Shown here: positions 11,227-36,142 of the stretch, piece by piece
How positions within the stretch are numbered: the stretch's first letter is position 1
How the letters are laid out: each line of letters opens with the position of its first letter
Virus record (IMG/VR): IMGVR_UViG_3300007734_000720
Coordinates: 1-51,071 of that record
DNA length: 51,071 nucleotides
Strand: one strand, 5' to 3'
From: a virus
Lineage: Duplodnaviria; Caudoviricetes
Translations under genes and position numbers: made by a program
Notes under the pieces: model-generated
What the model saw: only the letters and a program-made list of their open reading frames with translations
What the model was told of the DNA's origin: nothing
Databases searched by the model: none

Positions 11227-11247
11227 ACCAATAGGGCAAAATGTTAC
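11227..11247 (-). promoter_or_regulatory. Putative late promoter box
   Basis: GTAAC-ATTTTGCCC-TATTGGT-ATG; no Shine-Dalgarno. Confidence 0.65.
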
Positions 11248-11251
11248 CTAC

Positions 11252-23417: not shown

Positions 23418-23541
23418 AATCCCTCAATTCAAACGTCACCATCTTCTTTTCGTAGTCATCTACGCCACAAGTTGGACAAACCCAATTAGTTACCTGAGGA
23501 GGATACTCCTCACCACAATCAGGGCAGGTCAACAAAATCAA
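23404..23541 (-). CDS. CPxCG zinc-finger mini-protein (45 aa), missing from ORF track
   Basis: TTG start overlapping the terS stop; CPDCG...CPTCG. Confidence 0.7.
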   Translation of the reverse strand: MILLTCPDCGEEYPPQVTNWVCPTCGVDDYEKKMVTFELRDYGDD

Positions 23542-23978
23542 ACTACAGCCTTCAAATGATTACGATTAGCCTTCTCACGTTCTGCGATAGTGGCAATCAA
23601 CGAATCCAATTCGGCATCCGTCAAATCCACTGTCTTCTTATTAGAGCTAATCGTTACTGATGGCGGAGCCATCCGATTAGTCGCTTTCAAATACAGTTCA
23701 GCGGATTTGGTATCACCTTCCAGGGCCTTGTTGTACAGGTTGTCCAGAAGCTTCTGGGTTCGCTCTGGCGAACCCTGAATGTCATCTACCTGTGTCTTCC
23801 ATCGACTACGGAAAATGTCTTTCTTTTCCCACCTACGCATCGTTGATATATCAACTGTGTTCTCCAACGCATACTTGTTCTTAGAAGCTGGCACACGCTC
23901 CGACGGAGCGGTGCACAGCCAATCCAAATACTTCTCCTGCGCTGCAGTAAGGGTCATCTCTTCGTTTTGTTTCATCAT
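23538..23978 (-). CDS. terS: Terminase small subunit (HTH)
   Basis: N-terminal HTH (VDISTMRRWEK), LYNKALEGDTKSAELYL, DLTDAELD; first gene of the late operon. Confidence 0.7.
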   Translation of the reverse strand: MMKQNEEMTLTAAQEKYLDWLCTAPSERVPASKNKYALENTVDISTMRRWEKKDIFRSRWKTQVDDIQGSPERTQKLLDNLYNKALEGDTKSAELYLKATNRMAPPSVTISSNKKTVDLTDAELDSLIATIAEREKANRNHLKAVV

Positions 23979-23997
23979 CTAAAGGTGCGTTTGTTAC
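23976..23997 (-). promoter_or_regulatory. Putative late promoter box upstream of terS
   Basis: GTAAC-AAACGCACC-TTTAGAT-G-ATG (second Met, 23975). Confidence 0.6.
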
Positions 23998-23999
23998 AC

Positions 24000-24030
24000 C
24001 ACTGTGAGTGGTTATGTACTCACTGTGAGT
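24000..24030. repeat. CACTGTGAGT twice, 21 nt apart; second copy within palindrome ACTCAC-T-GTGAGT
   Basis: 24000-24009 and 24021-24030, between divergent late boxes. Confidence 0.8.
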
Positions 24031-24033
24031 TAG

Positions 24034-24054
24034 GTAACGAACAAATGTAACAGT
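24034..24054 (+). promoter_or_regulatory. Putative divergent late promoter box
   Basis: GTAAC-GAACAAATG-TAACAGT facing the 24166 gene. Confidence 0.5.
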
Positions 24055-24063
24055 ACCAGGGGG

Positions 24064-24109
24064 GAGCGGAACACCGTGAGCGACCCAAGAGCGGAACACC
24101 CAGAGCTAC
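24064..24109 (+). repeat. Imperfect 21-nt direct repeat
   Basis: GAGCGGAACACCGTGAGCGAC (24064-24084) and GAGCGGAACACCCAGAGCTAC (24089-24109). Confidence 0.8.
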
Positions 24110-24121
24110 TAGAAGAGAAAC

Positions 24122-24142
24122 GCAATCACCTTCGGTGATTGC
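24122..24142 (+). promoter_or_regulatory. Perfect 9-bp hairpin
   Basis: GCAATCACC-TTC-GGTGATTGC upstream of SD and ATG 24166. Confidence 0.6.
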
Positions 24143-24165
24143 TGAATACACAAGGTAGGAAAGCA

Positions 24166-24483
24166 ATGGCAACAAGCAAAAAAGACTCACGAATCACACG
24201 GGCAGGAGTAGCCGGTTTCAACAAACCCAAAGCAACTCCAGGACACCCAACCAAATCCCACATTGTTGTGGCTAAATCTGCTGGTCAAATAAAAACTATT
24301 CGTTTTGGTCAACAAGGTGTCAAAACCAACCAAACCGCAGGACAACGAGAAGCCTTCAAATCTCGCCACGCCAAAAACATTTCCAAAGGACCAATGAGTG
24401 CCGCCTACTGGGCAAACAAAGTTAAATGGTCTTCATCAAAAACAGCCCAACCAAACAACAAAAAATGGGTTAAAGGTTCATGA
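24166..24483 (+). CDS. Basic phage protein
   Basis: ATG 24166 with AGGA SD; KSH.V......K.IRFGQQG...FK.RH...SAAYWA; Lys-rich. Confidence 0.8.
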   Translation: MATSKKDSRITRAGVAGFNKPKATPGHPTKSHIVVAKSAGQIKTIRFGQQGVKTNQTAGQREAFKSRHAKNISKGPMSAAYWANKVKWSSSKTAQPNNKKWVKGS

Positions 24484-24875
24484 CATACACCAACCCCTCG
24501 CTTCGAAACAAAATCAAAAACCGAGTAATGGCAGGAACCCAAGGTGGCAACGCAGGACAATGGTCTGCCCGCAAAGCCCAACTAGTAGCACAAAAATACA
24601 AGGCTGCAGGTGGCGGATACTCTGGTGCAAAGACCAGCAAACAAGAATCCCTGTCCAAATGGACTAAAGAAAAGTGGACAACCAAGTCAGGTAAACCATC
24701 CACCCAAGGACCCAAAGCAACAGGTGAACGCTACCTACCAAAGAAAGCTATTGAAAGCTTGTCATCTGCTGAATACGCTAAGACCACTGCTGCCAAACGT
24801 AAAGGCACCAAGTCAGGTCAACAGTTCGTCAAGCAACCAACAAAGATTGCAAACAAGACCAAAAACTACAGATAG
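24480..24875 (+). CDS. Basic phage protein, DUF5872-like
   Basis: GQWSARKAQL..QKYK..GGGY, SL.KWTKEKW.TKSGK, ERYLP. Confidence 0.8.
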   Translation: MTYTNPSLRNKIKNRVMAGTQGGNAGQWSARKAQLVAQKYKAAGGGYSGAKTSKQESLSKWTKEKWTTKSGKPSTQGPKATGERYLPKKAIESLSSAEYAKTTAAKRKGTKSGQQFVKQPTKIANKTKNYR

Positions 24876-24980
24876 TTTTCATATTATTTTTAGTTAAGGT
24901 ACCCTATTGTTTAGGTACCCCCCCTATGTTTTGGTAATCACGCTCTCGCCCTGAGCAGATACCATCCTTTTACTAGAGTA

Positions 24981-25006
24981 CCCCCACCCCCCCCCTACTC
25001 CCCCCC
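24981..25006. repeat. Poly-C tract (G-rich on minus strand)
   Basis: C5-A-C9-TACT-C7; another C7 at 24918-24924. Confidence 0.9.
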
Positions 25007-25173
25007 TTGTGTGCTCACACCAGCATCGCCTTGCGACGCTTGGTGTCCCGAGCCCTGTGCCCCCCACTGCGACTCAGAGAGAGCCTCTCGTCCGTAGTAC
25101 TCGGGTAAACCACTCTAAGTGGTCGCCCCTATCCTCTAGTGCCAACACCAGACCCTAGACCTACTGATAAACC

Positions 25174-25208
25174 ATAATTTCTCTCTACCGCTTCGCGAGA
25201 GAAATTAT
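25174..25208 (+). promoter_or_regulatory. Early-region hairpin A
   Basis: ATAATTTCTCTC / GAGAGAAATTAT 12-bp stem; loop contains GCTTCGC. Confidence 0.65.
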
Positions 25209-25242
25209 TCACTGATTAGAACCCAAACCGAAAGAAGGGCTT

Positions 25243-25503
25243 ATGGCTTCTGTGGTAAATAAAAGAAATGTACCCACTGGTGTTGCCAGCGTGTACATAG
25301 GTCGCCCCAGTAAGTGGGGCAACCCGTTCCCCTTGTATGGGGAACAGTTTAGAGATGAAGTTATTGCTCAATATGAGCAATACCTTCTGAATTCACCAGA
25401 ATTGCTAGCGCAATTAGGTGAATTGAAAGGGCAAGATTTGGTGTGCTGGTGTGCGCCAAAAGCCTGCCATGGTGACATCCTTCTACGCCTTGCCAACGAA
25501 TGA
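25243..25503 (+). CDS. DUF4326 family protein
   Basis: VYIGRPSKWGNPF...LKGQDLVCWCAPKACHGDIL. Confidence 0.9.
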   Translation: MASVVNKRNVPTGVASVYIGRPSKWGNPFPLYGEQFRDEVIAQYEQYLLNSPELLAQLGELKGQDLVCWCAPKACHGDILLRLANE

Positions 25504-25660
25504 GTTGGCAGGGCTAGAAGTTGTAAGTGTTAGAGAGTGGTTGTGTGACTGCGTTCCACCCGCAATATGTCAGTTCCTGTTCCGTCGGGGCTGAGACCAC
25601 TCTCTTTCAAGTTCCATAAACAAAACAAACCGTGGTGAAAGCCACAGAAAGGGGTCAGTC

Positions 25661-25834
25661 ATGAGTGCTTTGAATAGCCATGATGACGACTTCATCAATG
25701 AATGTGCCGAACACTTCCATAAACAGGCTAACGCCTCGTTTATGGACGACTTGTCATCGCTTGCCGATGACAACCCAGAAAACATGGTGATATTGGTCAG
25801 GTTCATACTTGACCCAACATCCCAACTGTTCTAA
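25661..25834 (+). CDS. Small acidic early protein (57 aa), missing from ORF track
   Basis: GAAAGGGG SD, MSALNSHDDDFINECAEHFH... Confidence 0.7.
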   Translation: MSALNSHDDDFINECAEHFHKQANASFMDDLSSLADDNPENMVILVRFILDPTSQLF

Positions 25835-25851
25835 CCAACACGGTTAGTTGA

Positions 25852-25892
25852 GAGCACACAAACCCTGAACCCCTTGCGGGGTTTGTGTGTTC
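25852..25892 (+). promoter_or_regulatory. Early-region hairpin B
   Basis: GAGCACACAAACCC / GGGTTTGTGTGTTC stem with one G-U pair. Confidence 0.6.
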
Positions 25893-25935
25893 AATTACCC
25901 ACCGTGGGTAGATATGAATAACTAAGGAGAGTTCA

Positions 25936-26154
25936 ATGCGTGGATTACCAACATATTGTGAACAGCGTGGGTTGCTGGTTGAGTTATGGTTCTCGTCACC
26001 AAACGGTGACAGTTCCGACAGTCACATCGTACAAATGTGCTGTGAGACAACTCAACAGGCTTCCGACTTGTGCGCAACTTGGAATATCATCATCAAGAAT
26101 GTCAACGAAGTTGTTGTTGCGGGAACAATTCGTCCCCTCATCAGGCTTTCATAA
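25936..26154 (+). CDS. Hypothetical early protein (72 aa)
   Basis: AAGGAG SD; TAATG coupling to next gene. Confidence 0.7.
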   Translation: MRGLPTYCEQRGLLVELWFSSPNGDSSDSHIVQMCCETTQQASDLCATWNIIIKNVNEVVVAGTIRPLIRLS

Positions 26155-26315
26155 TGATTGTCACCAACTTTTGGGGCGTGTTTACTGTGTTACTCGCCTC
26201 TCATCTAGTCGCTGTACTCTTCGCCTGCGTGGCAGGCTACGAGTACGGACTAGACCATCCAGAACCAGAAACCGATACAGATGTCCCGTGGAAATTTGTT
26301 GACGGGATTAGATAA
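26154..26315 (+). CDS. Small single-TM early protein (53 aa)
   Basis: ATG 26154 overlapping upstream stop; hydrophobic N-terminal half. Confidence 0.6.
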   Translation: MIVTNFWGVFTVLLASHLVAVLFACVAGYEYGLDHPEPETDTDVPWKFVDGIR

Positions 26316-26324
26316 CAAACATGT

Positions 26325-26364
26325 GTTTCACTTGCTCGCCCGTTTCCGTGCGAGCAAGTGAAAC
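26325..26364 (+). promoter_or_regulatory. Early-region hairpin C
   Basis: Perfect 15-bp stem GTTTCACTTGCTCGC / GCGAGCAAGTGAAAC, 19 nt before ATG 26384. Confidence 0.65.
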
Positions 26365-26383
26365 CCTCTAACGAAAGGTAAGT

Positions 26384-26644
26384 ATGAGTGACTTTGAGCC
26401 AAGCCACCAGTCGAAGCATCCTGCGGGACGCTTCTATGGTGGAGTATCAAGGACAGTTCAAAATGAAATTGATGGGTTTGATGACACAGACCCAGAGCAA
26501 GTGCTCATTCGTCAAGACGATGAGCGTGATAACAGGTTCTTCATCAACACGCTTGATGATGTAGCCACGCCTTGCTACGAGCAAGACGATGACTACACAG
26601 ATGACCGTTTCCCTGAAATCAAACGCAGACTAACGGCAGAATGA
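26384..26644 (+). CDS. Acidic early protein (86 aa)
   Basis: GAAAGG SD; Asp/Glu-rich. Confidence 0.75.
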   Translation: MSDFEPSHQSKHPAGRFYGGVSRTVQNEIDGFDDTDPEQVLIRQDDERDNRFFINTLDDVATPCYEQDDDYTDDRFPEIKRRLTAE

Positions 26645-26699
26645 TTTCTCGTTGGTCTCGCCCCCCTGCTTCGCGTGGGTGCGAGCCCACCGAGAGAAA
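26645..26699 (+). promoter_or_regulatory. Early-region hairpin D
   Basis: TTTCTC..CTCGC / GCGAG..GAGAAA interrupted stem; loop contains GCTTCGC. Confidence 0.55.
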
Positions 26700-26745
26700 A
26701 TAAAAAAAAAACAAAAACAAAGTCCAACAGGACAGAAAGGTCGTC

Positions 26746-27207
26746 ATGACCACATCAACAAAGACCAAGACGGCGAAGGCACCAGCCACGACCGTCACCA
26801 CCCCAGAGACAGTGACATTGACAGTCGCATCTGTTGACAACGGAGCCAAGAACGGCAAGTTCGTACGCTTCGTAGCCAACCAACGCAACATTCAGTGGCA
26901 GGTGTACATGACCGACGCAAAAGTCATGGCGCACAAAATCAACGAAGGTTCCAAGTTGACCGTCCTCGCATCGTCAATCAAAATTGCCGACGCATACGAC
27001 ACAGTCAACAAGCGTCCAATGCTTGACGAGAATGGTCTCACATTCCCGTCACCAGTCGTCTATGGCTGGGTCAACGCAGAAGGCGAAACCGTTGAGTACG
27101 CATACGGCAAGGGAACGCTTGACATCGGCATCAAGATTGTCAAGAACGAGACCAACCCGAACATCGGCGAAGCACAGGCTAAATCAGCCTTTGACCCGCT
27201 GGCATAG
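26746..27207 (+). CDS. Hypothetical early protein (153 aa), possibly OB-fold
   Basis: GAAAGG SD, strongly C-ending codons, beta-rich core. Confidence 0.75.
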   Translation: MTTSTKTKTAKAPATTVTTPETVTLTVASVDNGAKNGKFVRFVANQRNIQWQVYMTDAKVMAHKINEGSKLTVLASSIKIADAYDTVNKRPMLDENGLTFPSPVVYGWVNAEGETVEYAYGKGTLDIGIKIVKNETNPNIGEAQAKSAFDPLA

Positions 27208-27220
27208 TCCAAGTCCACCC

Positions 27221-27411
27221 GAACCCACTTGTCCCCTCCGGGGCCAAGTGGGTTCATTACCACGCTAGGAGCATCGTGCTACCGCACTATTTCGCAAGCG
27301 AAATTGCCCCTTATCCAATCATTTCGGCAAAGCCGAAATCGTCAGGTCAAACCACAACCATGAACCACATGAACTTATTCTCGACCCCTCCGGGGCCAAG
27401 AGTAAGTTCAT
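27221..27411 (+). repeat. Two related hairpins (E, F) flanking two mini-hairpins
   Basis: 27221-27255 and 27369-27411 share CCCCTCCGGGGCCAAG; ATTTCGCAAGCGAAAT (27289-27304) and ATTTCGGCAAAGCCGAAAT (27321-27339) lie between them. Confidence 0.75.
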
Positions 27412-27460
27412 TTACTGCTACACAAATGAAAAGCAATCGGATGGGGCAGAAATTGGGTGC

Positions 27461-27497
27461 GTTTCTTGCGCCCCCTGCTCCGCGTGGCGCAAGAAAC
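27461..27497 (+). promoter_or_regulatory. Early-region hairpin G
   Basis: GTTTCTTGCGCC / GGCGCAAGAAAC 12-bp stem; loop contains GCTCCGC; AAAGGAG SD follows. Confidence 0.65.
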
Positions 27498-27519
27498 ACC
27501 CCCCAACAAAGGAGTAATA

Positions 27520-27762
27520 ATGAAAAAAAATGTTGAGTATTACGTTGGGTATTACAAAAAAGAAAAAATGGCTTGGTTGGATTTTTTAGAACTCTTTACT
27601 GATGAACTTACCTTGCAAGATTTGCGTTGGGTGTGGTTGTATATTGACAGATTTGACAACATCATCAAGAGATTACAAAATCCAAATTGTATGCACGAAA
27701 AACAAATAGAACAAAAATTAGACAGAGCACTTGCTAGACAAGTTCTCATCTACGGAAGATAG
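27520..27762 (+). CDS. Hypothetical early protein (80 aa)
   Basis: ATG 27520 after AAAGGAG; AT-rich. Confidence 0.7.
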   Translation: MKKNVEYYVGYYKKEKMAWLDFLELFTDELTLQDLRWVWLYIDRFDNIIKRLQNPNCMHEKQIEQKLDRALARQVLIYGR

Positions 27763-27771
27763 GAAAAACTC

Positions 27772-28020
27772 ATGAACGGCAATGTAATCATGCTAACCAA
27801 CAACGGTTCTGTCACATCAATTCGTATTGCAACGGCATGGACTGATGACCATGACCCTATTGTAATTGATATTCCATTCAAAACACATGACGAAGCATTT
27901 TTTTACTTCAATGCTTTGTCAAACTTGTTCGAGTTACCAAACTCAATTGTTTGGTCAGATGGTGTAGCAATAAGAGAAACCAACAAACGACACACAAGGA
28001 GCAGTAATGCCACTAAATAA
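27772..28020 (+). CDS. Hypothetical early protein (82 aa)
   Basis: AGGA SD, tight packing. Confidence 0.7.
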   Translation: MNGNVIMLTNNGSVTSIRIATAWTDDHDPIVIDIPFKTHDEAFFYFNALSNLFELPNSIVWSDGVAIRETNKRHTRSSNATK

Positions 28021-29113
28021 CGAAGAAGAAGAACAGATACTCTGTTACTCAAGCGGGTGCACAAACGCAGGTGAATTCACCAACGAATACACAGACGAAT
28101 ACTACTGTGAAGCTCACAACGAAATGGTCATCGACCATTACCACGAATCAAATGATGACCACAGTGATGACTACGGTGACGATGATGACAACGAAAGTGA
28201 TGAACGCACAATCCACAGCTACGGCTATCATCCACGAGCATCATTCATGCGTTCGGATGGAACACACTCAATGTATGTTACATACTTGGACCCAAGCATG
28301 CCAGGAGAAGTGCGCTCAAACAAAAGAACAACATTCACAATGGGTTTCGAACTCGAAACACAATATGTTGGTGACAACGCATTCGGCAGAGAGATACCAA
28401 TAGAGTTGCTCAACGATGTGAACTCATCACATGAATCAGACATCTACCTCAAAGAAGATGGCTCTGTATACAACGGCTTTGAGATTGTGTCACACCCAGG
28501 TGAACTTGACTACTTCATGAATCACTTCAAATGGAAAGGCATCGAAAACCTTGCCCGCAAAGGCTTTCAAGCATGGAAACGTCCATGTTGTGGATTACAC
28601 GTGCACGTAGCCAAATCAGCATTCGCTGACACATCACACAAATTCAAGTTCATTGCATTTGTGTACAAGAACAGACCAGAAATGGTTCAACTTGCTGGTC
28701 GTGAGAGTCACGACTACGCAAGTTATGACATCAAGCGTTTCCTCAACAGCCACAGGGACTGGGTGGATGACAACGGCAAAATCATCCGACACACAAACCT
28801 AATGAAAATGGCTAAAGGTGAAGACTGTAACAACTCACGCAGTGTTGCTGTCAATATTCAAAACGAAAAAACAATCGAATTACGATTGTTCAAACCTTCA
28901 CTAAAAACAGAAACAGTCAGAGTGGCACTCCAATTCTGTGACGCACTATTCAATTACACAGAAGTAATCAGCACTTACGACATTCTACAAAAGAATGCTT
29001 TGACATTCCCAGAGTTTCGTAAATGGGTGACAGCCAACAACGAGAAATACAAAGTTCTCGACACACGCATATCAGAAAGAGTCAAAGTCAAATCAACAGG
29101 AAGAGACGTATAA
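28007..29113 (+). CDS. Putative amidoligase (COOH-NH2 ligase, glutamine-synthetase-like fold)
   Basis: GFELET, KEDGSV, GFEIVSHP, CGLHVHV, TIELRLF. Confidence 0.88.
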   Translation: MPLNNEEEEQILCYSSGCTNAGEFTNEYTDEYYCEAHNEMVIDHYHESNDDHSDDYGDDDDNESDERTIHSYGYHPRASFMRSDGTHSMYVTYLDPSMPGEVRSNKRTTFTMGFELETQYVGDNAFGREIPIELLNDVNSSHESDIYLKEDGSVYNGFEIVSHPGELDYFMNHFKWKGIENLARKGFQAWKRPCCGLHVHVAKSAFADTSHKFKFIAFVYKNRPEMVQLAGRESHDYASYDIKRFLNSHRDWVDDNGKIIRHTNLMKMAKGEDCNNSRSVAVNIQNEKTIELRLFKPSLKTETVRVALQFCDALFNYTEVISTYDILQKNALTFPEFRKWVTANNEKYKVLDTRISERVKVKSTGRDV

Positions 29114-29114
29114 C

Positions 29115-30122
29115 ATGTGTCTACTCACATTCATGCCGTCCGACGTTACACCGGACATGTCACGGTTCAAAGAAGCAGCACTCAACAATGGTGATGGCTT
29201 CGGATTCGCAATTTTAGAGTCAAAAGGCTTTATAAAAGCGCATTCTATGAACTTCAACGAAGTTGCCAACAAATTCGTTGACGCTCGTGACAAGCACAAA
29301 GGTCCAGCCATATTCCACTTCAGATGGGCTACACATGGTACGGAAACAGTTGACAACTGTCATCCGTTCCTACTCGGTGATGACCCAACATCCGTTGTTG
29401 GTCACAACGGAATACTTGACGTGCAAATTCCCAAAGATGACAAACGCAGTGACACCAAAATATTCGCAGAAGACATAATGCCAGCAATCGGTGGCATCAC
29501 ATCTCTGGATGATGAAAAGTACTTCAACACAATGGAAACATGGGCAGGTGGCAACAAACTAGTCTTCCTCACCCACAATGATGACGCCAAGTTCAATTGG
29601 TACATCCTCAATGCACATCTAGGTCATTGGGACCAAGACATGTGGTGGTCAAACACATCATACAAAAAGTATGCGCCAATTGCCAGCACATACCAAGCAA
29701 CCCACTCATTGTGGGATGATGACGATTACGGCTACGAATCGTACAACAACTATCGTTGGGATTACGCAGACAGACGATACGTATCAATACATGACAACAA
29801 ACCACTTGAAATCGTCGAGTACGACGACGAAGCAGAACTATGGCAAGAAGACATTGAAGAAATAGCAATGGAAAAGTTCAAAGTGTTCATGACATACATT
29901 GACGAAGAAAGCAGTCTTGTCGAATGCTACACATGTGCTGTCGCATACACAGTTGACGATGAAATGTGGCCAACAGAATGCCCAAACTGTGATGCATGTC
30001 TACATTGTGGACACTACGGCGGATGCAACTGTTGGCTAGGTCTAGATGATTTCTTTCATCTAGCAGGTTTCCCATTACCACGTAAAAATTTATACACAAC
30101 ACAAAAGGAGATAGCAAAATGA
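29115..30122 (+). CDS. Class II (Ntn) glutamine amidotransferase with C-terminal Zn-ribbons
   Basis: Cys2 nucleophile, HFRWATHG, HPF, HNGI, SDT; CYTC/CPNC/CLHC tail. Confidence 0.9.
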   Translation: MCLLTFMPSDVTPDMSRFKEAALNNGDGFGFAILESKGFIKAHSMNFNEVANKFVDARDKHKGPAIFHFRWATHGTETVDNCHPFLLGDDPTSVVGHNGILDVQIPKDDKRSDTKIFAEDIMPAIGGITSLDDEKYFNTMETWAGGNKLVFLTHNDDAKFNWYILNAHLGHWDQDMWWSNTSYKKYAPIASTYQATHSLWDDDDYGYESYNNYRWDYADRRYVSIHDNKPLEIVEYDDEAELWQEDIEEIAMEKFKVFMTYIDEESSLVECYTCAVAYTVDDEMWPTECPNCDACLHCGHYGGCNCWLGLDDFFHLAGFPLPRKNLYTTQKEIAK

Positions 30123-30637
30123 CAACCATCAGACTCATCCCACAAGTAATGGAGTTTGATGTAGCAATCGATGCTGCATCAATGCCATCACTATTCAATC
30201 AATCGTTGGAAACAACAATCTGTGAAAAAATTGATGAGCATGTATCCAACCGAATACCAACAGCAGAAACTGTCGCAGAACAACTTGAAGGTTCAAGAGA
30301 CTTCCTACGACGCATGCGTGACTGGGTTATCGAATCAATGGACCACAATGAAATCGCAAGACAAATTGGTAATGACATCAGCGTAAGCGACATCATCGAA
30401 TCATTGGACATCAACAGCGAAACAATCCTCGGCAACCCAACATTCCTGCGTCAAATGACGGAATACACAAGATTCCGTTCTCTCGTTCAAAACGCTGTCA
30501 ACAACCTACATGAAACAATGAGCGTAGAACAAATCATTGAAGACAAAATCAATACAATGTCTGTCAACATCGCAAACGAAGTTGCCGACAAAGTCATGAC
30601 AGTAATCATCAACAGGTTCAGCAACAGAGATGTCTGA
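30119..30637 (+). CDS. Hypothetical helical protein (172 aa)
   Basis: AAGGAG SD, ATGA overlap. Confidence 0.8.
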   Translation: MTTIRLIPQVMEFDVAIDAASMPSLFNQSLETTICEKIDEHVSNRIPTAETVAEQLEGSRDFLRRMRDWVIESMDHNEIARQIGNDISVSDIIESLDINSETILGNPTFLRQMTEYTRFRSLVQNAVNNLHETMSVEQIIEDKINTMSVNIANEVADKVMTVIINRFSNRDV

Positions 30638-30893
30638 TACAAGCTGGATGATTGGAGCAATGTGCTACGGAAAACCAACACGATGGTGGTTCCCACAACA
30701 CAGAGACAAAGCAGATGATGTGTACAACTTCAGAGTGGCAAAACGCATCTGCAGCACATGCTCAGTAAAACAGCAATGCCTGGAATATGGCATAGCAACC
30801 AATTCATTCGGAGTGTGGGGTGGGATTACCCTACAAGGAAGGCATGACAGATATGGCTCAAGAGATAAAACACTGGATATGTCAAATGTGTAA
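30630..30893 (+). CDS. whiB: WhiB family transcriptional regulator
   Basis: Four Cys (C...CxxC-x5-C) and FGVWGG. Confidence 0.93.
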   Translation: MSDTSWMIGAMCYGKPTRWWFPQHRDKADDVYNFRVAKRICSTCSVKQQCLEYGIATNSFGVWGGITLQGRHDRYGSRDKTLDMSNV

Positions 30894-30977
30894 AAAAGTA
30901 ATTACCACTTACGTTCCATTACGCAATACCCCAACATGTACAAATAAACATAAACCAACTGAAATGGAGAAATACAA

Positions 30978-31466
30978 ATGACAACAAGCAAAGCATTCAA
31001 AATGATTGATGATGAAATCGCCAAAAAAATGCCAACAGGTGATGATGGCTTCAATCTAGAAAAAGCAGGATTGTATGGCATCCACGAATTCGCAGATGGT
31101 GGTGCAATCGCAATCAAAGAATCAGACAACGGAGACGTATACGAATTGCTCAGCAACCTCAACAACGTCGTCAAGCTCATCCCTTATGACGGATTCGGTA
31201 TCGTCACAGTCGGTTGGGCAGCACCAATTGCAAAAGACCTAGATGATTTCGACGGACCACCAAGTAAACACCCAGAAAAAAGACGAGTTCGTTTGTTCTG
31301 CTACTGCAATGCACAAGGTGAAGTCTCTTCATCAATCCGATTCAAAGACGATGATGAAGTTACCTACGATGAAAACCAAGCAACAGGTAGTCTCAAGGAA
31401 GCAATGACTGTCATGTTCAAAGACAAAAAAGACGCAACCAAAGCGTTCAAAGCATTCCAAGACTAA
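30978..31466 (+). CDS. Hypothetical protein (162 aa)
   Basis: GGAG SD; GWAAP...PSKHPEKRRVRL. Confidence 0.8.
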   Translation: MTTSKAFKMIDDEIAKKMPTGDDGFNLEKAGLYGIHEFADGGAIAIKESDNGDVYELLSNLNNVVKLIPYDGFGIVTVGWAAPIAKDLDDFDGPPSKHPEKRRVRLFCYCNAQGEVSSSIRFKDDDEVTYDENQATGSLKEAMTVMFKDKKDATKAFKAFQD

Positions 31467-31678
31467 TGCATACAGCAACGCAAGAAGACTTACGACTATT
31501 CGTAAACTGGTTAGCCGGACATGGTATGCCAACCGTAGACACCTACAGTTGGTTAGTCCGTTGCGAAGACTGGGTCAGGTCACACATTGAAGAAGACAAA
31601 AACTCAATTGAATGGATTATTCCATTTCCAAAAGGAGACACAAATGCAGGTGAAAGAAGCAATAGCAGCACTGTATAA
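31466..31678 (+). CDS. Hypothetical protein (70 aa)
   Basis: TAATG coupling. Confidence 0.6.
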   Translation: MHTATQEDLRLFVNWLAGHGMPTVDTYSWLVRCEDWVRSHIEEDKNSIEWIIPFPKGDTNAGERSNSSTV

Positions 31679-31892
31679 ACTAAATGATGATGAAGAAATA
31701 TGTATGTACTGGCAAGCAAGGCCAGACAACATCAATATATACGCATGGGCATGGATTTGTGAAGAGTTCCCACTTGAAATATCACGTGAGTTCAATAACA
31801 TATTCTGTGACACAATCATGTCACTAAACGAGTTATACCCTTATGATGTAAGGGTTGCGTCGGGGGATGTGGTATTCGTTGAGAAAAAATGA
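31644..31892 (+). CDS. Hypothetical protein (82 aa)
   Basis: ATG 31644 after AAAGGAG. Confidence 0.65.
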   Translation: MQVKEAIAALYKLNDDEEICMYWQARPDNINIYAWAWICEEFPLEISREFNNIFCDTIMSLNELYPYDVRVASGDVVFVEKK

Positions 31893-32145
31893 ACCAACCC
31901 TTGATGTAACGATTACGCTTACAGAGTTAAGAGCAGTCGTCAAATCCCTATCAATCGGGACAGACCAACTAGCCAAAAAAATAAATCGCCTGGGCGATGA
32001 CAAACGAGCAGATGATGTATACGCCGAGTTTGCTGACTTGATGTCAGCAAAGAAAGAGATGGAAGAAGTCTTACTGGCAGCACTACAAGGAGAATCACTT
32101 GATAATCAAAACAATTATGGCCATGGCCATACTGCTAGGGAGTAA
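31879..32145 (+). CDS. Hypothetical coiled-coil protein
   Basis: Start uncertain (31867 or 31879); helical composition. Confidence 0.6.
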   Translation: MRKNEPTLDVTITLTELRAVVKSLSIGTDQLAKKINRLGDDKRADDVYAEFADLMSAKKEMEEVLLAALQGESLDNQNNYGHGHTARE

Positions 32146-32518
32146 CACCCCAAAGGAACCAAGACCAATAGTCAACTATCCACAAGCACCGCAAACAGCC
32201 AAGTGCCCGCAGTTCTGGGAAACAGCTCTACAAGTCGGGTGGAAATGGAAAGACCTGGCAGTCTTAGATAAAATCATGTTTCGAGAATCTAGATGTAATC
32301 CTCTAGCCTTCAACTCAACGGACCCAATGGGTGGCTCAAGAGGGCTTGTACAAATAAATGGCTTCTGGACACCCTGGCTCAAAGAACGAGGCGTCCTAAG
32401 CCCTCCTAAAGCGTCTGAAGGGCTGTTCAATCCCGCAGTCAACCTTCTCTCTGCACTACACATCTACAACTATGGCGTTGACAAATACGGTGACGGATGG
32501 GGACCTTGGGGTACTTGA
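32099..32518 (+). CDS. Lytic transglycosylase (SLT-like), with N-terminal signal/anchor
   Basis: IMFRESRCNP catalytic Glu, SRGLVQIN, LFNPAVN, GWGPW. Confidence 0.88.
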   Translation: MIIKTIMAMAILLGSNTPKEPRPIVNYPQAPQTAKCPQFWETALQVGWKWKDLAVLDKIMFRESRCNPLAFNSTDPMGGSRGLVQINGFWTPWLKERGVLSPPKASEGLFNPAVNLLSALHIYNYGVDKYGDGWGPWGT

Positions 32519-32542
32519 CAGAATCCACAAAATTGATATAAT
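32515..32542 (+). promoter_or_regulatory. Consensus housekeeping-sigma promoter for the replication operon
   Basis: TTGACA-N16-TATAAT with extended -10 TG; 9-bp hairpin 32568-32588 and AAGGAG SD downstream. Confidence 0.8.
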
Positions 32543-32604
32543 GCCCTTACAGGTACAAGCCACTGTAGCACCACCCGTCGGGTGGTGCGCAACAAGGAGA
32601 ACCA

Positions 32605-33438
32605 ATGAGAATCGAAGATAACAAAATCTTCATCCGCCAGTCTTGGCTGGGTGATGCGCTAATGTGCCCCGAACGTGCAAGACTTTCAGCCTTACACCCC
32701 GAGTCTCGCAAAGAAAACGACTCTGCCATGATGGGCACTGCCTGTCACACTGGCATTGAAGCTGTGCTCAATGAAGAAGTCACAGCCCAACACATGGGAG
32801 ACCATGCTGTGGAATCATTCCGTTGGAAAGAAAAAGAGTTGATTGAAGCAGGCAAAGCAATCAACATCACTAACACCAATCCGTCTCACTGGAACACACA
32901 CATTCGTTCAATGTGTGATGCATGGTTGCGAGATATCTATCCCAATGTGCCACTCGGTGGCACATCAGAATTCAAGTTCTCTACTCAAGTAGGAATGATT
33001 GGTGCCTACGAACTTCACTTCGAAGGAACTATGGATTACTTTCATCAAGAAAGTATTTGGGATTGGAAAACTGCTGCACGTAAATATTACCAAGCAGAAA
33101 AACAATCACAAAATATCCAATCATCTATTTACACCAAAGCAGCATATGAAATGGGGCTAATTGATTACCCAGCCACATTCAAGTTTGGTGTCATGATTCG
33201 CAATGCGTCCAGTACCGGACAAATTGTGAGTGTCAACAGAACAGAAGCCCATGGCAACTGGATTGTTGAACAAGCAACAGCATTAGCACAGATGGTGCTA
33301 ATGTACAACAATGACCCATCGGGTGGTCGATGGCTTGCCAATGACCAACACTTTCTCTGTTCGCAGAGATGGTGCCCAGTGTGGGATAAATGCAAGGGGG
33401 GCTACGTAGGCTCCGATAACGCCGAGGAGGCAGAGTAA
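32605..33438 (+). CDS. PD-(D/E)XK RecB/Cas4-like exonuclease
   Basis: CP...GTACH...GTMD...DWKT...Q...Y...C...WCP...C. Confidence 0.88.
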   Translation: MRIEDNKIFIRQSWLGDALMCPERARLSALHPESRKENDSAMMGTACHTGIEAVLNEEVTAQHMGDHAVESFRWKEKELIEAGKAINITNTNPSHWNTHIRSMCDAWLRDIYPNVPLGGTSEFKFSTQVGMIGAYELHFEGTMDYFHQESIWDWKTAARKYYQAEKQSQNIQSSIYTKAAYEMGLIDYPATFKFGVMIRNASSTGQIVSVNRTEAHGNWIVEQATALAQMVLMYNNDPSGGRWLANDQHFLCSQRWCPVWDKCKGGYVGSDNAEEAE

Positions 33439-33860
33439 TGGATAAAGATAAAGCCATAATCACTCAAGTCTGTGCAAAGATTGCAGCAGACTTGACAGAC
33501 AAAACAAAAGAGATGGATGCTCGTCTAAGCGAGTATGCAGTACTCTTCTCAACCATCAAAGACATTGTGTTCGACGAAATCTTCGGTGACACATCAGCAG
33601 CACAAGAAGTGCCAACGAACAACGTTGTCCAAATGGTTCAGTCATCATTCGCAGGAAGCGAAGCAGTTTCCTCGGGTGGGACGGTAAGCATCAAAGGCAC
33701 CACGCACGGTCCAGTACCTGAATGGCTCATCAAAGCCTGCAAGCGTGACGGTGTTACAGAAGTATGGGACAACCGTGACGGTTTGGCAGAAAACCCAAAG
33801 CGTCCTTCGTTCCGTGCAACAAGTGGAGAAAAGTCCTACTGGCCACCACGAGGTAAGTAA
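33438..33860 (+). CDS. Hypothetical replication/recombination-region protein (140 aa)
   Basis: Coupled between exonuclease and helicase; WDNR...NPKRPSF C-domain. Confidence 0.75.
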   Translation: MDKDKAIITQVCAKIAADLTDKTKEMDARLSEYAVLFSTIKDIVFDEIFGDTSAAQEVPTNNVVQMVQSSFAGSEAVSSGGTVSIKGTTHGPVPEWLIKACKRDGVTEVWDNRDGLAENPKRPSFRATSGEKSYWPPRGK

Positions 33861-34894
33861 TGAAAATGTCCGCAGAAGAAATTGCTGCGGGCTGGGAAAT
33901 GGTGGGGAGACACAATGTCTCCCCACTTTCCGAACACCGAATGTACACACCACTAGGTGAGTCAGTTGACTCGTTTGTCAGATGGGCTCAATCCCCACAA
34001 GAACGTATCAATCTCGGTATTGCCCGCATAGATACAGAGATGAGAGGAATTGCACCTGGAGAAATCGCCATGGTGCTTGGGTTCGCACACGGTGGCAAGA
34101 CATTATTATTACTTCACATGCTGTGCAATAACCGCGACAAGCATGTCGCGCTCTTCATCCCAGACGAACCAAGAGAACTTGTTCTCATCAAGCTCACCTG
34201 CATCACACACAACATTGACGCCAGAGTTCTTGAACAACGCATCGCAGACCATGACGAAGAAGCAATAGAACTACTACACAAGACAGCCAACGAAGACTAC
34301 CCAAACCTCGCAGTCTTTGACCAATCACTTACAGCAGGTGACATGGAGCGTGGCTACAACGAACTGTGTGATGTCTGGAATCAAGCACCAGAACTTGTTG
34401 TTGTGGACTTCTTGGACCTCATCCAAGCAGGTGAAACTGTGCCCGACAAGGCCAACTTCCTCAAAGGTTTCGGACGCAAACACGATGTACCGCTGCTTGT
34501 GTTACACCAAACCTCACGACATGCAGGTGCTGATGGTAAAAAACCAACCATGAGTTCGGGTGCATTCGGTGGTGAGCAACAAGCCACAGCAATCCTTGGT
34601 GTTCGTAGGCGCAAGTATGAAATACAAACAGAGATTAACGAACTCATCGAGAAGCTCAACAAAGGTGGCTCCGAACGCTCACAAGAGCGTTTGGAGTTCT
34701 TGCGTTACGAAGCAAAAATACATGAACACACAGTCACAGTCAACCTACTCAAAAACAAACGACCCGCCGGTCAACTTGTTGATGATGTGGATTTCGAACT
34801 CAACGCCATGACTGGTCGCATTCGTGAACTCAACGGTGAACTACCAAGACAATACAAACAGATGGGACTTGAATATGAACATCCCTATGACTGA
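33860..34894 (+). CDS. DnaB-like (SF4) replicative helicase
   Basis: GFAHGGKT Walker A, VVVDFLDLI Walker B, LLVLHQTSR, KNKR. Confidence 0.88.
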   Translation: MKMSAEEIAAGWEMVGRHNVSPLSEHRMYTPLGESVDSFVRWAQSPQERINLGIARIDTEMRGIAPGEIAMVLGFAHGGKTLLLLHMLCNNRDKHVALFIPDEPRELVLIKLTCITHNIDARVLEQRIADHDEEAIELLHKTANEDYPNLAVFDQSLTAGDMERGYNELCDVWNQAPELVVVDFLDLIQAGETVPDKANFLKGFGRKHDVPLLVLHQTSRHAGADGKKPTMSSGAFGGEQQATAILGVRRRKYEIQTEINELIEKLNKGGSERSQERLEFLRYEAKIHEHTVTVNLLKNKRPAGQLVDDVDFELNAMTGRIRELNGELPRQYKQMGLEYEHPYD

Positions 34895-35783
34895 TGCCAT
34901 CGAAGAGTTCATGGAACTCTTCCAAGGTCGCACAGATGCATACGGCACCTGGGAAGGTGGTTCAGTAAAAGAACCAACAAACTATAAAACGTTCGCACGT
35001 CATCTATATGACGAAGAGTTCGTCGGTATCTACCCACTCAAAGATGACCACACCGTCAGGTGGGGTTGTTCTGACATTGATGTTGACAACATAGACCTCG
35101 CAAGAAATCTACAGTACGCACTTCAAGCACAAAAGATTCCAGCGTTCGTAGAAAAAACTGTCAGGGGATTCCATGTCTGGGTGTTCGCATCAGAATGGGT
35201 ATCTGCTGCAATCATGCGCAGAGCCTTCTTGGCAGCGCACGAAGCAATCAATCTAATTGCTAAAGAAGTAAACCCCAAGCAAGAACAAGCCAAAGATGTA
35301 GGTAATTACGTAAGACTACCATACCCAGGAGCAATGGTGACAACACCAACAGCACGATACATGATTGATGACAATGACCAACCAATTGAAATTGGAACAT
35401 TCATATCAGAAGCACTAGACAATCGAGTAACAGCCGACATGCTCAGACCACTAGCAGAAATGCACAGACCAAGAACAAAAACCACAATGGAAAACCTAGA
35501 TGTATCTGCATCGGTGGAAGAAGCACTCAGACATTGCTCAAGATATTCCAAACATCTATGGTTCAATGGACCACTAGAACGTCAAGACAGGTCAAACACA
35601 CTGTGTCAACTTGCCCACACAATGAACCAGTACAATGTTCCCATCAACTTCGCATACATCGTGCTCGTTGATGCAGACAAACGGTGGGGCAAATTCCACC
35701 TACGTGAAGACTGCGTAGAACAATTAGTAAAGATAATCGAAGACACCTACGGCGAAGACAACAGAACGGCATTCAGACCATGA
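34875..35783 (+). CDS. Archaeo-eukaryotic primase (prim-pol)
   Basis: FQGRTDAYG, VGIYPL, SDID, RGFHVWVF, GNYVRLPY, C-terminal DRS. Confidence 0.85.
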   Translation: MNIPMTDAIEEFMELFQGRTDAYGTWEGGSVKEPTNYKTFARHLYDEEFVGIYPLKDDHTVRWGCSDIDVDNIDLARNLQYALQAQKIPAFVEKTVRGFHVWVFASEWVSAAIMRRAFLAAHEAINLIAKEVNPKQEQAKDVGNYVRLPYPGAMVTTPTARYMIDDNDQPIEIGTFISEALDNRVTADMLRPLAEMHRPRTKTTMENLDVSASVEEALRHCSRYSKHLWFNGPLERQDRSNTLCQLAHTMNQYNVPINFAYIVLVDADKRWGKFHLREDCVEQLVKIIEDTYGEDNRTAFRP

Positions 35784-36142
35784 AACAATATAAGTTCAAT
35801 CAAATATTCGCAGTCCGTCCCCGTGTAAAAGGCAGACCAAGAGTCACTAAAACTGGTCATGCTTACACACCTGCCACTACTCGTGAGTACGAAAACAAAA
35901 TCAAAGCAATGTATACCGGACCACTCTTCGAGAAAGGTCTGCTATCTGTAAAACTTCGCTTCACAGTTGATGGAATAGAAGTCCAAATAGAACCAGTCAT
36001 GCATAATCCACTCGTAGAAGGCACCCTCAGCAAACTCACAGGAGACCTAGATAATTATGCCAAAGCAGTACTTGACGCCCTAAATGGTGTAGCGTACACA
36101 GATGACAAACAAATCGTTTGTCTGTATGTGGAGAAAGCATGA
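35780..36142 (+). CDS. rusA: RusA Holliday junction resolvase
   Basis: KGRPRV...YTP...DLDNYAKAVLDALNGVAYTDDKQI. Confidence 0.93.
   Translation: MKQYKFNQIFAVRPRVKGRPRVTKTGHAYTPATTREYENKIKAMYTGPLFEKGLLSVKLRFTVDGIEVQIEPVMHNPLVEGTLSKLTGDLDNYAKAVLDALNGVAYTDDKQIVCLYVEKA

Follow-up and report, generated by a model that had tools for sequence, protein, structure and literature searches.

Conserved hairpins in the early region of an uncultured freshwater phage resemble linkers for message processing or gene cassettes, unlike N4-type promoters

In an uncultured freshwater phage with a genome of ~39.5 kb, real and conserved hairpins punctuate the early genes. Because their loops vary freely in relatives, they have the look of linkers for message processing or gene cassettes, unlike N4-type promoters. 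The hairpins were studied in the window, i.e., the whole 51,071-nt stretch of DNA that was analysed (IMG/VR record IMGVR_UViG_3300007734_000720, positions 1 to 51,071). With a little better than even confidence, we favour the explanation that they are cis-acting punctuation of the sense-strand RNA (processing, stability or attenuation) and double as recombination linkers. The evidence consists of the structures, conservation, covariation, loop variability and positions of the hairpins, and of the swapping of cassettes around them; from it we infer action as RNA, a nuclease, and an effect on stability or termination.

Hairpins of the early region

The hairpins and their apical heptamers are listed in Table 1. 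Coordinates and sequences of the hairpins and heptamers given in the original prediction were confirmed on re-examination, and X2, B2, EF1, EF2 and the long-range stem, which were absent from it, were found in addition. The inverted-repeat arms measure 9-20 nt, with 85-100% complementarity. When folded as RNA, 9 of 12 elements surpassed in stability every one of 200 dinucleotide-shuffled versions (z between -4.92 and -8.02), while weaker folds relative to shuffles were obtained for X2 (z -2.4), EF1 (z -1.2) and a hairpin at 32563 (z -3.9). A strict count (at least 11 Watson-Crick pairs, at most one mismatch, loop of 3-13) over the non-redundant 39,481 nt returned 19 hairpins; five were intergenic, and all five lie within 25174-27499. 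Intergenic DNA makes up 3,688 of the 39,481 nt.

Table 1. Hairpins of the early region and positions of their apical heptamers (window coordinates; z, folding energy relative to shuffles)
Feature	Position	Strand	Description	z
H0	24122..24142	+	leader stem of the first early gene, 9 bp with UUC triloop	-6.04
A	25174..25208	+	perfect 12-bp stem; loop contains a CGC-UUC-GCG mini-stem	-5.97
Long-range stem	25532..25605	+	10 bp, AGAGAGTGGT/ACCACTCTCT, around a structured insert of ~54 nt	
X2	25632..25645	+	small 5-bp hairpin adjoining the Shine-Dalgarno sequence (SD) of gene 25661	-2.36
B	25852-25892, extended 25839..25906	+	long imperfect stem, ~27 positions	-6.08
B2	25896..25910	+	palindrome TACCCACCGTGGGTA, overlapping the 3' arm of extended B	
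C	26325..26364	+	15-17-bp stem	-8.02
D	26645..26698	+	stem of ~25 positions, UUC loop, conserved U x C mismatches	-5.78
E	27221..27255	+	15-bp stem, UCC loop; paralogue of F and B	-6.34
EF1	27289-27304	+	small ATTTCG...CGAAAT hairpin in ORF-free gap	-1.16
EF2	27321-27339	+	small ATTTCG...CGAAAT hairpin in ORF-free gap	-4.92
F	27369..27411	+	stem of ~20 positions, UCC loop	-7.04
G	27459-27499, outer 27453..27506	+	UCC apex; upper part paralogous to D	-5.76
GCTTCGC heptamer	25190 and 26668			
GCTCCGC heptamer	27477			
CCTCCGG heptamer	27235 and 27387			
CCTTCGG heptamer	24129			

Loops of 3 nt are limited to H0, A (inner loop), D, E, F and G, and two paralogous groups are present among the hairpins of the window, D with G and B with E and F. 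The upper ~32 nt are common to D and G, as had been claimed (mean column identity 80%). The recurrence of apical motifs, on which the original prediction drew, stands in that the heptamers are present as listed; however, their recurrence is not independent, because D and G, and likewise B, E and F, are paralogous copies. Across the whole window the heptamers are only modestly enriched: GCTYCGC occurs 12 times against 6.4 +/- 2.4 expected (12 was reached in 2 of 100 shuffles), and CCTYCGG 5 times against 4.4 +/- 2.3 (reached in 45 of 100).

The stems are placed between same-strand genes and have the placement of promoter-early stem-loops (PeSLs), i.e., a stem-loop between an upstream stop codon and a downstream SD and start codon. 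A stop codon precedes B, C, D and E by 0-13 nt, and for H0, A, X2, C, D and G the next start codon lies 13-47 nt beyond the 3' end. Specifically, H0 lies 23 nt upstream of the ATG at 24166, and A lies 34 nt upstream of the ATG at 25243, which begins a DUF4326 gene; a conserved CATAAT overlaps the 5' base of A. The long-range stem is found downstream of the DUF4326 gene and is missing in most relatives. The extended stem of B starts 4 nt past the stop codon of gene 25661-25834, C is situated 9 nt past a stop codon and 19 nt upstream of the ATG at 26384, and D begins directly after the stop codon at 26644 and is separated by an A-rich spacer of 47 nt from the ATG at 26746. E follows the stop codon of a 153-aa gene by 13 nt, and G precedes the ATG at 27520 by 13 nt.

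Conservation of stems and variability of loops

The window was compared with 25 related loci, each element being recovered in 4-17 sequences. The stems are kept, with compensatory changes, in 24 related contigs, and a strand-neutral count gave 12 compensatory columns. Covariation was best in B among all elements, with 5 of 24 pairs compensatory, 8 carrying G-U variants and 98.6% of cells paired; its covariation score of 0.288 compared with 0.211 +/- 0.011 in shuffles and was reached by none of 500, and in a slid-partner control at most 41.5% of cells paired. Compensatory pairs were also present in D (3/17), C (2/17), E (1/14) and X2 (1/5, GC to UA), the last of which lies within a module conserved in 16 sequences. 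H0 was recovered in six sequences, four of them distinct, with the loop-closing G changed to A in one, and the B2 palindrome TACCCACCGTGGGTA was unchanged in 12 of 12 distinct relatives.

The loops, in contrast to the stems, were not preserved. In D, E and G, at least five forms of the apex were seen for each among 9-13 distinct relatives, the UCC loop of E being replaced by GCC, GUCC, UGCC or GAAA, and a C[TNC]G apex was found in just 8 of 115 distinct hairpins of the lineage. GAAA, CUUG and similar loops, typical of stable RNA hairpins, are among those of the relatives, and distant relatives (~60% protein identity) carry unrelated hairpins in the same gaps, with loops of UUUUU, CAAG or GAAAAC. 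In the favoured explanation, it is probably the stem, and not the loop, that is under selection.

These data bear directly on one of the two readings of the original prediction, in which the hairpins are N4-like signals, with mini-hairpins of the C(GNA)G type on the template (-) strand read by an injected protein; as N4-type promoters they would be recognised by a virion-carried polymerase, for example the 2243-aa protein. Six apexes in the window do read C-GAA-G or C-GGA-G on the - strand, and they fit what N4 requires, namely a G:C closing pair and a loop with 5' G and 3' A (PMC4496689). However, the apical motifs are not kept across relatives, an outcome that the original prediction had itself named among those refuting it, and by this loop variability the N4-type reading is largely refuted. 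Furthermore, the stems span 9 (H0) to ~27 (B) positions versus 5-7 bp, so that transcription of the N4 type, beginning ~11 nt from the centre of the loop, would have to start within the stem, and in B and D pairs held only by sense-strand G-U are lost on the - strand.

Strand evidence

The evidence on the strand is mixed, in that B and D favour the sense strand and C, E, F and G do not. Nine columns switch between Watson-Crick and G.T pairs, versus 3-4 between Watson-Crick and A.C, and the RNAalifold consensus energy was lower for sense than for antisense in B (-31.4 and -12.7) and D (-17.8 and -12.6); the consensus of G was slightly better antisense (-22.8 vs -18.7 sense). Of 102 distinct sequences that were folded singly, 72 were more stable as antisense and 30 as sense, with C, E, F, G, X2, P1 and P2 on the antisense side. 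Total G.T cells equal total A.C cells (58 vs 58), and the A.C mismatches that are invariant in F (a CGA/CCA internal loop in the sense strand) and in G would be G-U pairs on the antisense strand. A general sense-strand G-U asymmetry was dropped in view of the single-sequence folds and kept for B and D alone. G-T pairs are tolerated in single-stranded DNA as well, and the signal in B and D thus fits either RNA or + strand DNA.

Transcription signals and the search for a polymerase

A search of the + strand between 23900 and 27600 detected no sigma-70-like promoter reaching 10 of 12 matches. The best such sites near stems match at 8 of 12 positions (CAGACC-18-CATAAT at A and CTGAAA-18-CAGAAT at D), and the best in the modules overall at 8-9 of 12; that the left early genes are without a strong sigma-70-like promoter upstream speaks for the N4-type reading. 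Elsewhere, a promoter of perfect sequence, TTGACA-16-TATAAT with TG, lies at 32515-32542, and together with a gene of the Sigma70_r4-like type it points to use of the host RNA polymerase. A repeated GCGGAACAC word was considered as a phage promoter box and rejected, with 5 matches vs 9 expected. An Rfam E-value scan of 23500-33000 returned two chance-level rows only (E 3.2 and 4.6). The single RNA run found (X1, share 0.10) consists of assembled contigs from several strains; these revealed neither transcript starts or ends nor a strand, and they do not count as evidence of expression.

The original prediction had stated that no RNA polymerase is recognisable, and this was borne out: no polymerase was found by PHROGs (0 of 50 proteins) or by Pfam (0 of 26), and a search with PF00940 gave no match in the window, nor did it in the control genomes. 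Attention falls on the 2243-aa protein, which is conserved and encoded in the virion gene block, as the N4-type reading would have it. Against all PDB sequences, phmmer and a family profile of this protein detected helical bundles only, and hhalign against the N4 virion RNA polymerase (gp50) gave a probability of 0.5%. AlphaFold predicted all-alpha structures for residues 1-620 and 1880-2243, at low to moderate confidence (pLDDT 62 and 68), and Foldseek found no match to either in the PDB at E<=0.001; the central ~1260 aa (~621-1879) were compared by sequence profile only. Thus structure prediction, proposed originally as a way to uncover a polymerase, yielded two all-alpha conserved end domains and no polymerase fold, the central part being covered by profile only, and a hidden polymerase in the protein was rejected on the profile, hhalign and end-domain fold searches with the same coverage. 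In a wide VIA search, the best score of the C-terminal model was Z 5.9 to a cyanophage A4 pre-ejectosome chain (rmsd 4.4, 135 residues aligned), and the likeness of this helical model is too weak to be taken beyond a lead. An Atlas feature search with the 2243-aa protein led to viral clusters; in one cluster, 20% of the members carry LPD38.

Linker modules and cassette exchange

Two modules, one made up of X2, the SD and the first 11 codons and the other of B and the SD, are 74-92% identical in loci L004-L008, whereas the ORFs between them in the same loci are unrelated and have no BLASTP match; for modules of hairpin, SD and start codon together, the identity is 80-92%. Conserved islands at 25613-25693 and 25790-25941 accordingly stand beside non-homologous ORFs in L004, L005, L006, L008 and others. 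On either side the islands continue past the stem and into genes, a pattern that plain homologous recombination would be expected to give. That the stems are parts of linker modules with gene-cassette exchange had gone unnoticed in the original prediction. Of its two readings, the N4-like one is largely refuted by the unconserved loops, and the one of RNA processing or stability stems is partly supported, since it agrees with stems that are conserved and covary, with loops that change freely and with a position between stop codon and SD.

Proposed role and alternative explanations

In the explanation that we favour, each module would consist, in order, of a stop codon, a stem-loop on the + early transcript, an A/C-rich spacer, a Shine-Dalgarno sequence and a start codon. 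The family of B, E and F (base GAAC...GTTC, then AWTTAC), located 4-13 nt past stop codons, may serve as a 3' barrier or attenuator, and H0, A, X2, C, D and G, several with the base RTTTC...GAAAY and 13-47 nt before start codons, would be 5'-leader stems. B and D, whose imperfect helices run to ~25-27 positions, would be the best candidates for cutting of the RNase III type. The ORFs between modules would be exchanged by homologous recombination and the modules would stay alike, because each small early gene needs such a module; with modules alike and ORFs exchanged, the modules would therefore also serve as cassette linkers.

An alternative that we regard as possible but unlikely is that the stems are intrinsic terminators or attenuators lacking a U-tract, which would grade expression of the early operon and insulate cassettes in the manner of PeSL stem-loops, with no processing involved. 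The start of B, D and E 0-13 nt past stop codons and their GC-rich apexes agree with this, and PeSL stem-loops are reported to terminate in reporter tests (PMC2839356). However, no U-tract or T-run follows any stem on the sense strand; the 14 terminator-like sites in 23500-33000 are all on the - strand (0 of 14 on +) and not appreciably above the shuffle mean (10.1 +/- 3.0). Moreover, H0 and A lie in leaders with no nearby same-strand gene upstream, and G is 13 nt before a start codon.

It is rather improbable that the hairpins act at the level of DNA, as imperfect palindromes that phage proteins would use as an operator or as a structure-specific recombination signal directly driving cassette exchange. 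Such a role would suit the exchange adjoining the stems, the U x C mismatches of D and the A.C mismatches of F and G, which relatives have kept, the common stem-base words RTTTC...GAAAY and GAAC...GTTC, the equality of G.T and A.C overall, and the invariance of B2 as a perfect palindrome, but the homology islands pass beyond the stems into coding sequence, and neither a recombinase nor an integrase is detectable in the window by PHROGs or Pfam. The stem-base words are spaced from 6 to >40 nt, unlike dimer binding sites, and the eight G-U variant pairs of B are mismatches in the duplex or the - strand form.

A speculative extension, to which we attach a similarly small likelihood, is that the linkers go beyond passive homology patches and form, in small phages, a cassette system that lacks promoters and is defined by structure. 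The hairpins would then mark both message cutting and preferred exchange sites, and would be functionally comparable to integron attC sites or to PeSL mini-circles while needing no integrase of their own. Here, the mismatched palindromes and the stem-base words RTTTC...GAAAY and GAAC...GTTC-AWTTAC would be cut marks for ORFan cassettes, and exchange between co-infecting relatives would take place at single strands folded during replication.

Somewhat less probable still are leader RNA operators, i.e., 5'-side stems (H0, A, X2, C, D and G) bound by a phage or host protein that would control translation or anti-termination. The distance of 13-47 nt to start codons, the 32-nt upper stem common to D and G and the RTTTC...GAAAY base of several stems are consistent with operators; yet upper stems and loops differ between close relatives, no conserved single-stranded word like boxB or boxA is present, and no RNA-binding protein is recognisable by PHROGs or Pfam. 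Lastly, N4-type promoters are highly improbable given the loops and the polymerase searches described above, which removes an attractive but wrong lead, that of N4-style hairpin promoters in a 40-kb phage without a recognisable polymerase.

If the favoured explanation, of RNA punctuation that doubles as recombination linkers, is general, promoter-less hairpin linkers would help to explain how the early ORFans of small phages (anti-defence and take-over genes) turn over without breaking operon expression, and the linkers would be practical anchors for cassette boundaries in metagenomic phage genomes.

Comparison with known systems

The N4 promoters P1-P3 are described as a 5-7-bp stem with a 3-nt loop on the template strand, with conserved positions from -17 to +1 (-11 purine, -10G, -8G) and three sites at the genome end, used by a virion RNA polymerase of 3500 aa (PMC4496689). 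The six template-strand apexes of the window belong to the stable N4 loop type and stand before early genes, but the stems here are long and imperfect, the loops are variable and no homologue of the virion polymerase was found by the searches above. Polymerases of this type have a T7-like single-subunit core, and their transcription is rifampicin-resistant and starts at a fixed distance downstream of the loop. With intrinsic terminators, B, D and E share a GC-rich hairpin directly past a stop codon; unlike them, the stems are without a sense-strand U-tract.

In T7, the early mRNA carries five RNase III signals, in which mismatches lead to single-strand cuts that stabilise 3' ends (PMC3867540). 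Like the T7 signals, the stems described here are stem-loops that separate consecutive early genes, in a region that here is putatively polycistronic, and B and D, with ~25-27 positions and internal mismatches, resemble substrates in which a cut in one strand leaves behind a hairpin that stabilises the 3' end. The ideal RNase III substrate has ~22 bp of double-stranded RNA, or two helical turns, often with an internal loop (PMC3867540). B (~27 positions) and D (~25) attain this length, F and G come close to it (~20), and H0 (9), A (12-14), C (17) and E (15) fall short of it. The stems have no sequence likeness to the T7 signals and no Rfam match, and they are denser, with ~12 elements in 3.4 kb vs five in ~7 kb in T7.

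A close architecture is that of the PeSLs known from T4-type phages (Arbiol et al. 2010, PMC2839356; Comeau et al. 2014, PMC4122927). The modules differ from PeSLs in being without a strong sigma-70-like promoter (best 8-9 of 12), the stems are longer and form at least two sequence families, and the phage, at ~39.5 kb, is of an unrelated lineage and not a T4-type myovirus. As PeSLs are described in these papers, both are intergenic, stable stem-loops with G-T pairs, placed between a stop codon and the SD and start codon and clustered among small ORFans of a plastic early region, and in both the element is conserved while the flanking ORFs are replaced, so that both may be regarded as homology patches for modular shuffling. 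A PeSL-like linker architecture is thereby documented, by covariation and natural cassette swaps, in a freshwater lineage far from the T4-type phages.

Stems and loops of the early hairpins

All of the stems and of the apical heptamers (GCTYCGC and CCTYCGG) of the original prediction were found at their reported places on re-checking. Folded as RNA, hairpins H0, A, B, C, D, E, EF2, F and G were each better than 200 of 200 dinucleotide shuffles (z -4.9 to -8.0); X2, EF1 and a hairpin at 32563-32593 were weaker in this test. A strict, strand-neutral rule (at least 11 Watson-Crick pairs, at most one mismatch, loop of 3-13) returned 19 hairpins in the non-redundant genome, 5 of them intergenic; all five lie inside 25174-27499, and intergenic DNA makes up 3,688 of 39,481 nt. 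The left 3.4 kb of the early arm consists of small genes with gaps of 68-367 nt, each gap holding at least one strong stem; the part of the arm to the right of this has few stems, with genes that abut or overlap.

Features of the window, with distances (nt) of stems from the preceding stop codon and to the following start codon
Feature	Position	Strand	After stop	Before start	Source
Virion genes	23978 leftwards, and 51071 down to 37802	-			PHROGs/Pfam
Early and replication genes	24166-37872	+			PHROGs/Pfam
Late/early divergent junction	23984-24101				
Compound palindrome in junction	23984-24058				
Hairpin H0	24122-24142			23	
Non-coding stretch	24876-25242				
Hairpin P1	~25017-25046				
Hairpin P2	~25110-25127				
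Hairpin A	25174-25208			34	
DUF4326 gene	25243-25503				
Hairpin X2	25632-25645			15	
Hairpin B	25839-25906		4		
Palindrome B2	25896-25910				
Hairpin C	26325-26364		9	19	
Hairpin D	26645-26698		0	47	
153-aa early protein	26746-27207				
ORF-free gap	27208-27519				
Hairpin E	27221-27255		13		
Hairpin EF1	27289-27304				
Hairpin EF2	27321-27339				
Hairpin F	27369-27411				
Hairpin G	27453-27506			13	
Amidoligase-like and amidotransferase-like genes	28007-30122	+			
TTGACA-16-TATAAT promoter	32515-32542				
Sigma70_r4-like gene, 129 aa	36742-37131	+			Pfam, 27.6 bits (cut-off 24.1)
2243-aa virion-block protein	38320-45051	-			

Related loci were collected with the 153-aa early protein as query (5 viral loci), with its alignment (20 metagenome loci) and with the amidoligase-like gene (3 more loci). 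L001-L003 (the window itself) and L007, L009 and L010 (same contigs or duplicates of L006) were left out, and the comparison set was 25 loci and the window. Elements occurred in at least 4 (EF2) to at least 17 (C and D) sequences, in 2-13 distinct versions each; these counts are lower bounds because many loci are short. In B, 5 of the 24 consensus pairs changed on both sides and 8 had G-U variants; 98.6% of cells are paired, against 30-42% when the partners are slid by 1-3 columns. None of 500 shuffles exceeded the covariation score of B, 0.288. Compensatory pairs were also found in D (3 of 17), C (2 of 17), E (1 of 14) and X2 (1 of 5), and the two in G are confined to frayed outer pairs. Across 11 elements, dynamic programming without regard to strand counted 123 columns of invariant Watson-Crick pairs and 12 with compensatory changes.

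Among relatives, the apex of E reads UCC, GCC, GUCC, UGCC, a CUACCA variant or GAAA, that of D reads GCUUCGC, CGCUUGCG, GCGUUCGC, GCUUUGC, GCGCUGC or GCAUCCGC, and that of G drifts as well. In L024-L028 (~60% protein identity), strong hairpins also occur in the equivalent gaps; their sequences are unrelated and their loops read UUUUU, CAAG, GAAAAC or CCUCA. The window and 24 loci together have 115 distinct intergenic single hairpins (dG ≤ -14; crude ORF calls, which may include some false gaps), with 20 triloops and only 8 cases of C[TNC]G. Taken together, these sequence comparisons indicate selection on the stems and none on the loops; the recurring GNA-type apical motif, originally proposed as a functional signal, is not conserved in relatives, an outcome that the original prediction had itself named as refuting the motif reading.

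Enrichment of the two heptamers in the window is no more than mild: GCTYCGC occurs 12 times against an expected 6.4 ± 2.4, and CCTYCGG 5 times against 4.4 ± 2.3. The stem sequence already noticed as common to D and G amounts to ~32 nt of the upper stem, and B, E and F align with each other at stem base, apex and 3' flank; the heptamers at the apexes recur largely through paralogy (D with G; B with E and F). The stem-base word RTTTC...GAAAY is found in A, C, D, G, EF1 and EF2, and distant relatives have it too, in a hairpin unrelated to these (L024, ~3078-3112). That of B, E and F is GAAC...GTTC followed by AWTTAC, and the stem end seen most often in the 115 lineage hairpins is GTTTC/GAAAC (8 cases). 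The ORF-free gap (312 nt), with five consecutive hairpins (E, EF1, EF2, F and G), is kept in several relatives (L004, L006, L022) and had no Rfam match; it may represent a structured non-coding RNA or what is left of lost cassettes. All 12 distinct relatives carry the palindrome B2, TACCCACCGTGGGTA, without change. It shares bases with the 3' arm of the extended B stem, and may serve as an operator or, as a competing hairpin, switch the lower stem of B.

Position of the stems and transcription signals

The leader spacers (H0, A, X2, C, D and G) are A/C-rich with clear SD sequences. No T-run was found after any stem, and the 14 terminator-like sites in 23500-33000 are all on the - strand and not above chance; no + strand promoter-like site with at least 10 of 12 matches was found in 23900-27600. 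We favour, with moderate confidence, the reading that the stems punctuate the sense early message (barriers or attenuation, 5' protection, RNase III candidates), in modules that double as recombination linkers. Stems at gene ends (B, E and F) would attenuate read-through or act as a block to 3' exonucleases, those in leaders would shield processed 5' ends with the SD left open, and the long mismatched helices B and D would be candidate RNase III sites of the kind described for T7 (PMC3867540). That the stems are attenuators only, which would have to be U-tract-less, is doubtful.

The stretch 32515-32588 holds the single perfect sigma-70 consensus of the window (with upstream TG), in front of the exonuclease-helicase-primase block; between it and the exonuclease gene, close to the latter, comes a 9-bp GUC-triloop hairpin. 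This site is likely the main host-polymerase promoter of the replication block. The Sigma70 region-4 protein, encoded where the early arm ends, is a candidate for a late-transcription sigma factor or appropriator of the phage, and the promoter and this gene point to host RNA polymerase.

The 367-nt non-coding stretch has C7-C9 runs (G-runs on the - strand; quadruplex possible in principle), direct repeats GGTACCC..TATGTTT, and hairpins P1 and P2, with A.C mismatches that would be wobbles on the - strand; with 82-85% conservation among relatives, it is a possible origin, packaging site or promoter region. The late/early junction carries a compound palindrome of ~75 nt in which the word CACTGTGAG recurs, and next to it GAGCGGAACACC as a direct repeat at 24065 and 24090; the junction may act as operator, promoter or pac region. 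The hairpin-rich region is directly followed by two neighbouring genes, one Amidoligase_2-like (368 aa) and one class-II glutamine amidotransferase-like (335 aa), the former kept in relatives at 61-76% identity.

Strand of the signal

A general G-U asymmetry across the stems was dropped after single-sequence folding, which favoured antisense in 72 of 102 distinct sequences, and equal scoring of G.T and A.C (58 cells each). The remaining signal is narrower: 9 columns vary between Watson-Crick and G.T versus 3-4 for A.C, and B and D, the stems with most variation, both fold far better in sense (consensus energies -31.4 versus -12.7 kcal/mol antisense for B, and -17.8 versus -12.6 kcal/mol for D). 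G is slightly better in antisense (-22.8 versus -18.7), and F and G have invariant A.C mismatches. Because the evidence is mixed, the sense-strand reading is fairly probable and no better than that. G-T pairs are tolerated in single-stranded DNA too, so that sequence alone does not separate RNA from + strand DNA. DNA-level palindromes or structure-specific recombination signals are an unlikely explanation of the stems; that a protein uses the leader stems as operators is quite unlikely.

The record and its polymerase search

The IMG/VR virus record (51,071 bp, GC 44.6%) has ends that are diverged copies: 1-5760 matches 39482-45229 at 85%, and 7814-11308 matches 47631-51071 at 79%; overall, 1-11308 and 39482-51071 carry the same virion genes, 78-85% identical. 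The record is therefore longer than one genome and assembled across two strains; the real genome measures ~39.5 kb. At the left end, an open frame of 1860 aa represents the copy of the 2243-aa gene that belongs to the second strain. The virion block contains small and large terminase, portal, scaffold, major head protein, internal virion proteins, the 2243-aa protein and a peptidase-like protein. The major head protein is only 25-41% identical to the nearest named phages, and the single RNA run with similar sequence is labelled freshwater metagenome.

PHROGs (50 proteins) and Pfam (26 proteins) named no RNA polymerase, and a six-frame search for PF00940 gave no match, control genomes likewise giving none. 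The large family to which the 2243-aa protein belongs consists of proteins of 2200-2600 aa, on contigs of at most ~45 kb. Most have no Pfam domain, and fusions to NADAR (PF08719) or DUF4326 (PF14216) occur in a few; DUF4326 is a free-standing early gene in the window. Against solved structures, with N4 mini-vRNAP and crAss-like gp66 in principle covered, the family profile gave no polymerase, only helical bundles (E ≥ 0.01), and hhalign against N4 gp50, the virion RNA polymerase, gave a probability of 0.5%; the original statement that no polymerase is recognisable was borne out. Structure prediction, once suggested as a route to a hidden polymerase, gave all-alpha folds of modest confidence and no clear fold match for the conserved N- and C-terminal domains, and the variable centre (residues ~621-1879) was covered by the sequence profile only. 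The best VIA row, for the C-terminal model, a cyanophage pre-ejectosome chain (Z 5.9), is a weak lead that fits an ejection protein, and the 2243-aa protein looks like a polyvalent ejected protein. N4-type promoters are very improbable, given the drifting apexes, the rarity of C[TNC]G and the lack of a polymerase in all of these searches.

Cassette exchange and comparison with known linkers

Between the window and L004-L008, homology is an archipelago of conserved islands. The X2 module with the first 11 codons (25613-25693) is 88-92% identical and the B module with its SD (25790/25808/25840 to 25914/25941) 74-81% identical, and the ORFs between them are replaced. The gene after X2 encodes 57 aa in the window and 76 aa in L004, L005, L006 and L008, the likeness ending after the first 14-18 residues; that after B encodes 72 aa in the window, and its counterparts elsewhere, of 89 or 67 aa, gave no BLASTP match. 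Under the punctuation reading, modules needed by every cassette would be conserved and so serve as recombination linkers.

Intergenic stem-loops of phage early operons and linkers of the PeSL (promoter-early stem-loop) type are already known; new here are the lineage, the promoter-less module, the two sequence families with common stem-base words and the direct natural evidence of swapping. In T4-type phages, a PeSL consists of a stop codon, a sigma-70 promoter together with a stem-loop that contains G-T pairs, then SD and start codon; PeSLs cluster among ORFans and are used as crossover points (PMC2839356, PMC4122927). The modules of the window resemble PeSLs in being kept while neighbouring ORFs are replaced, and differ in having no recognisable promoter.
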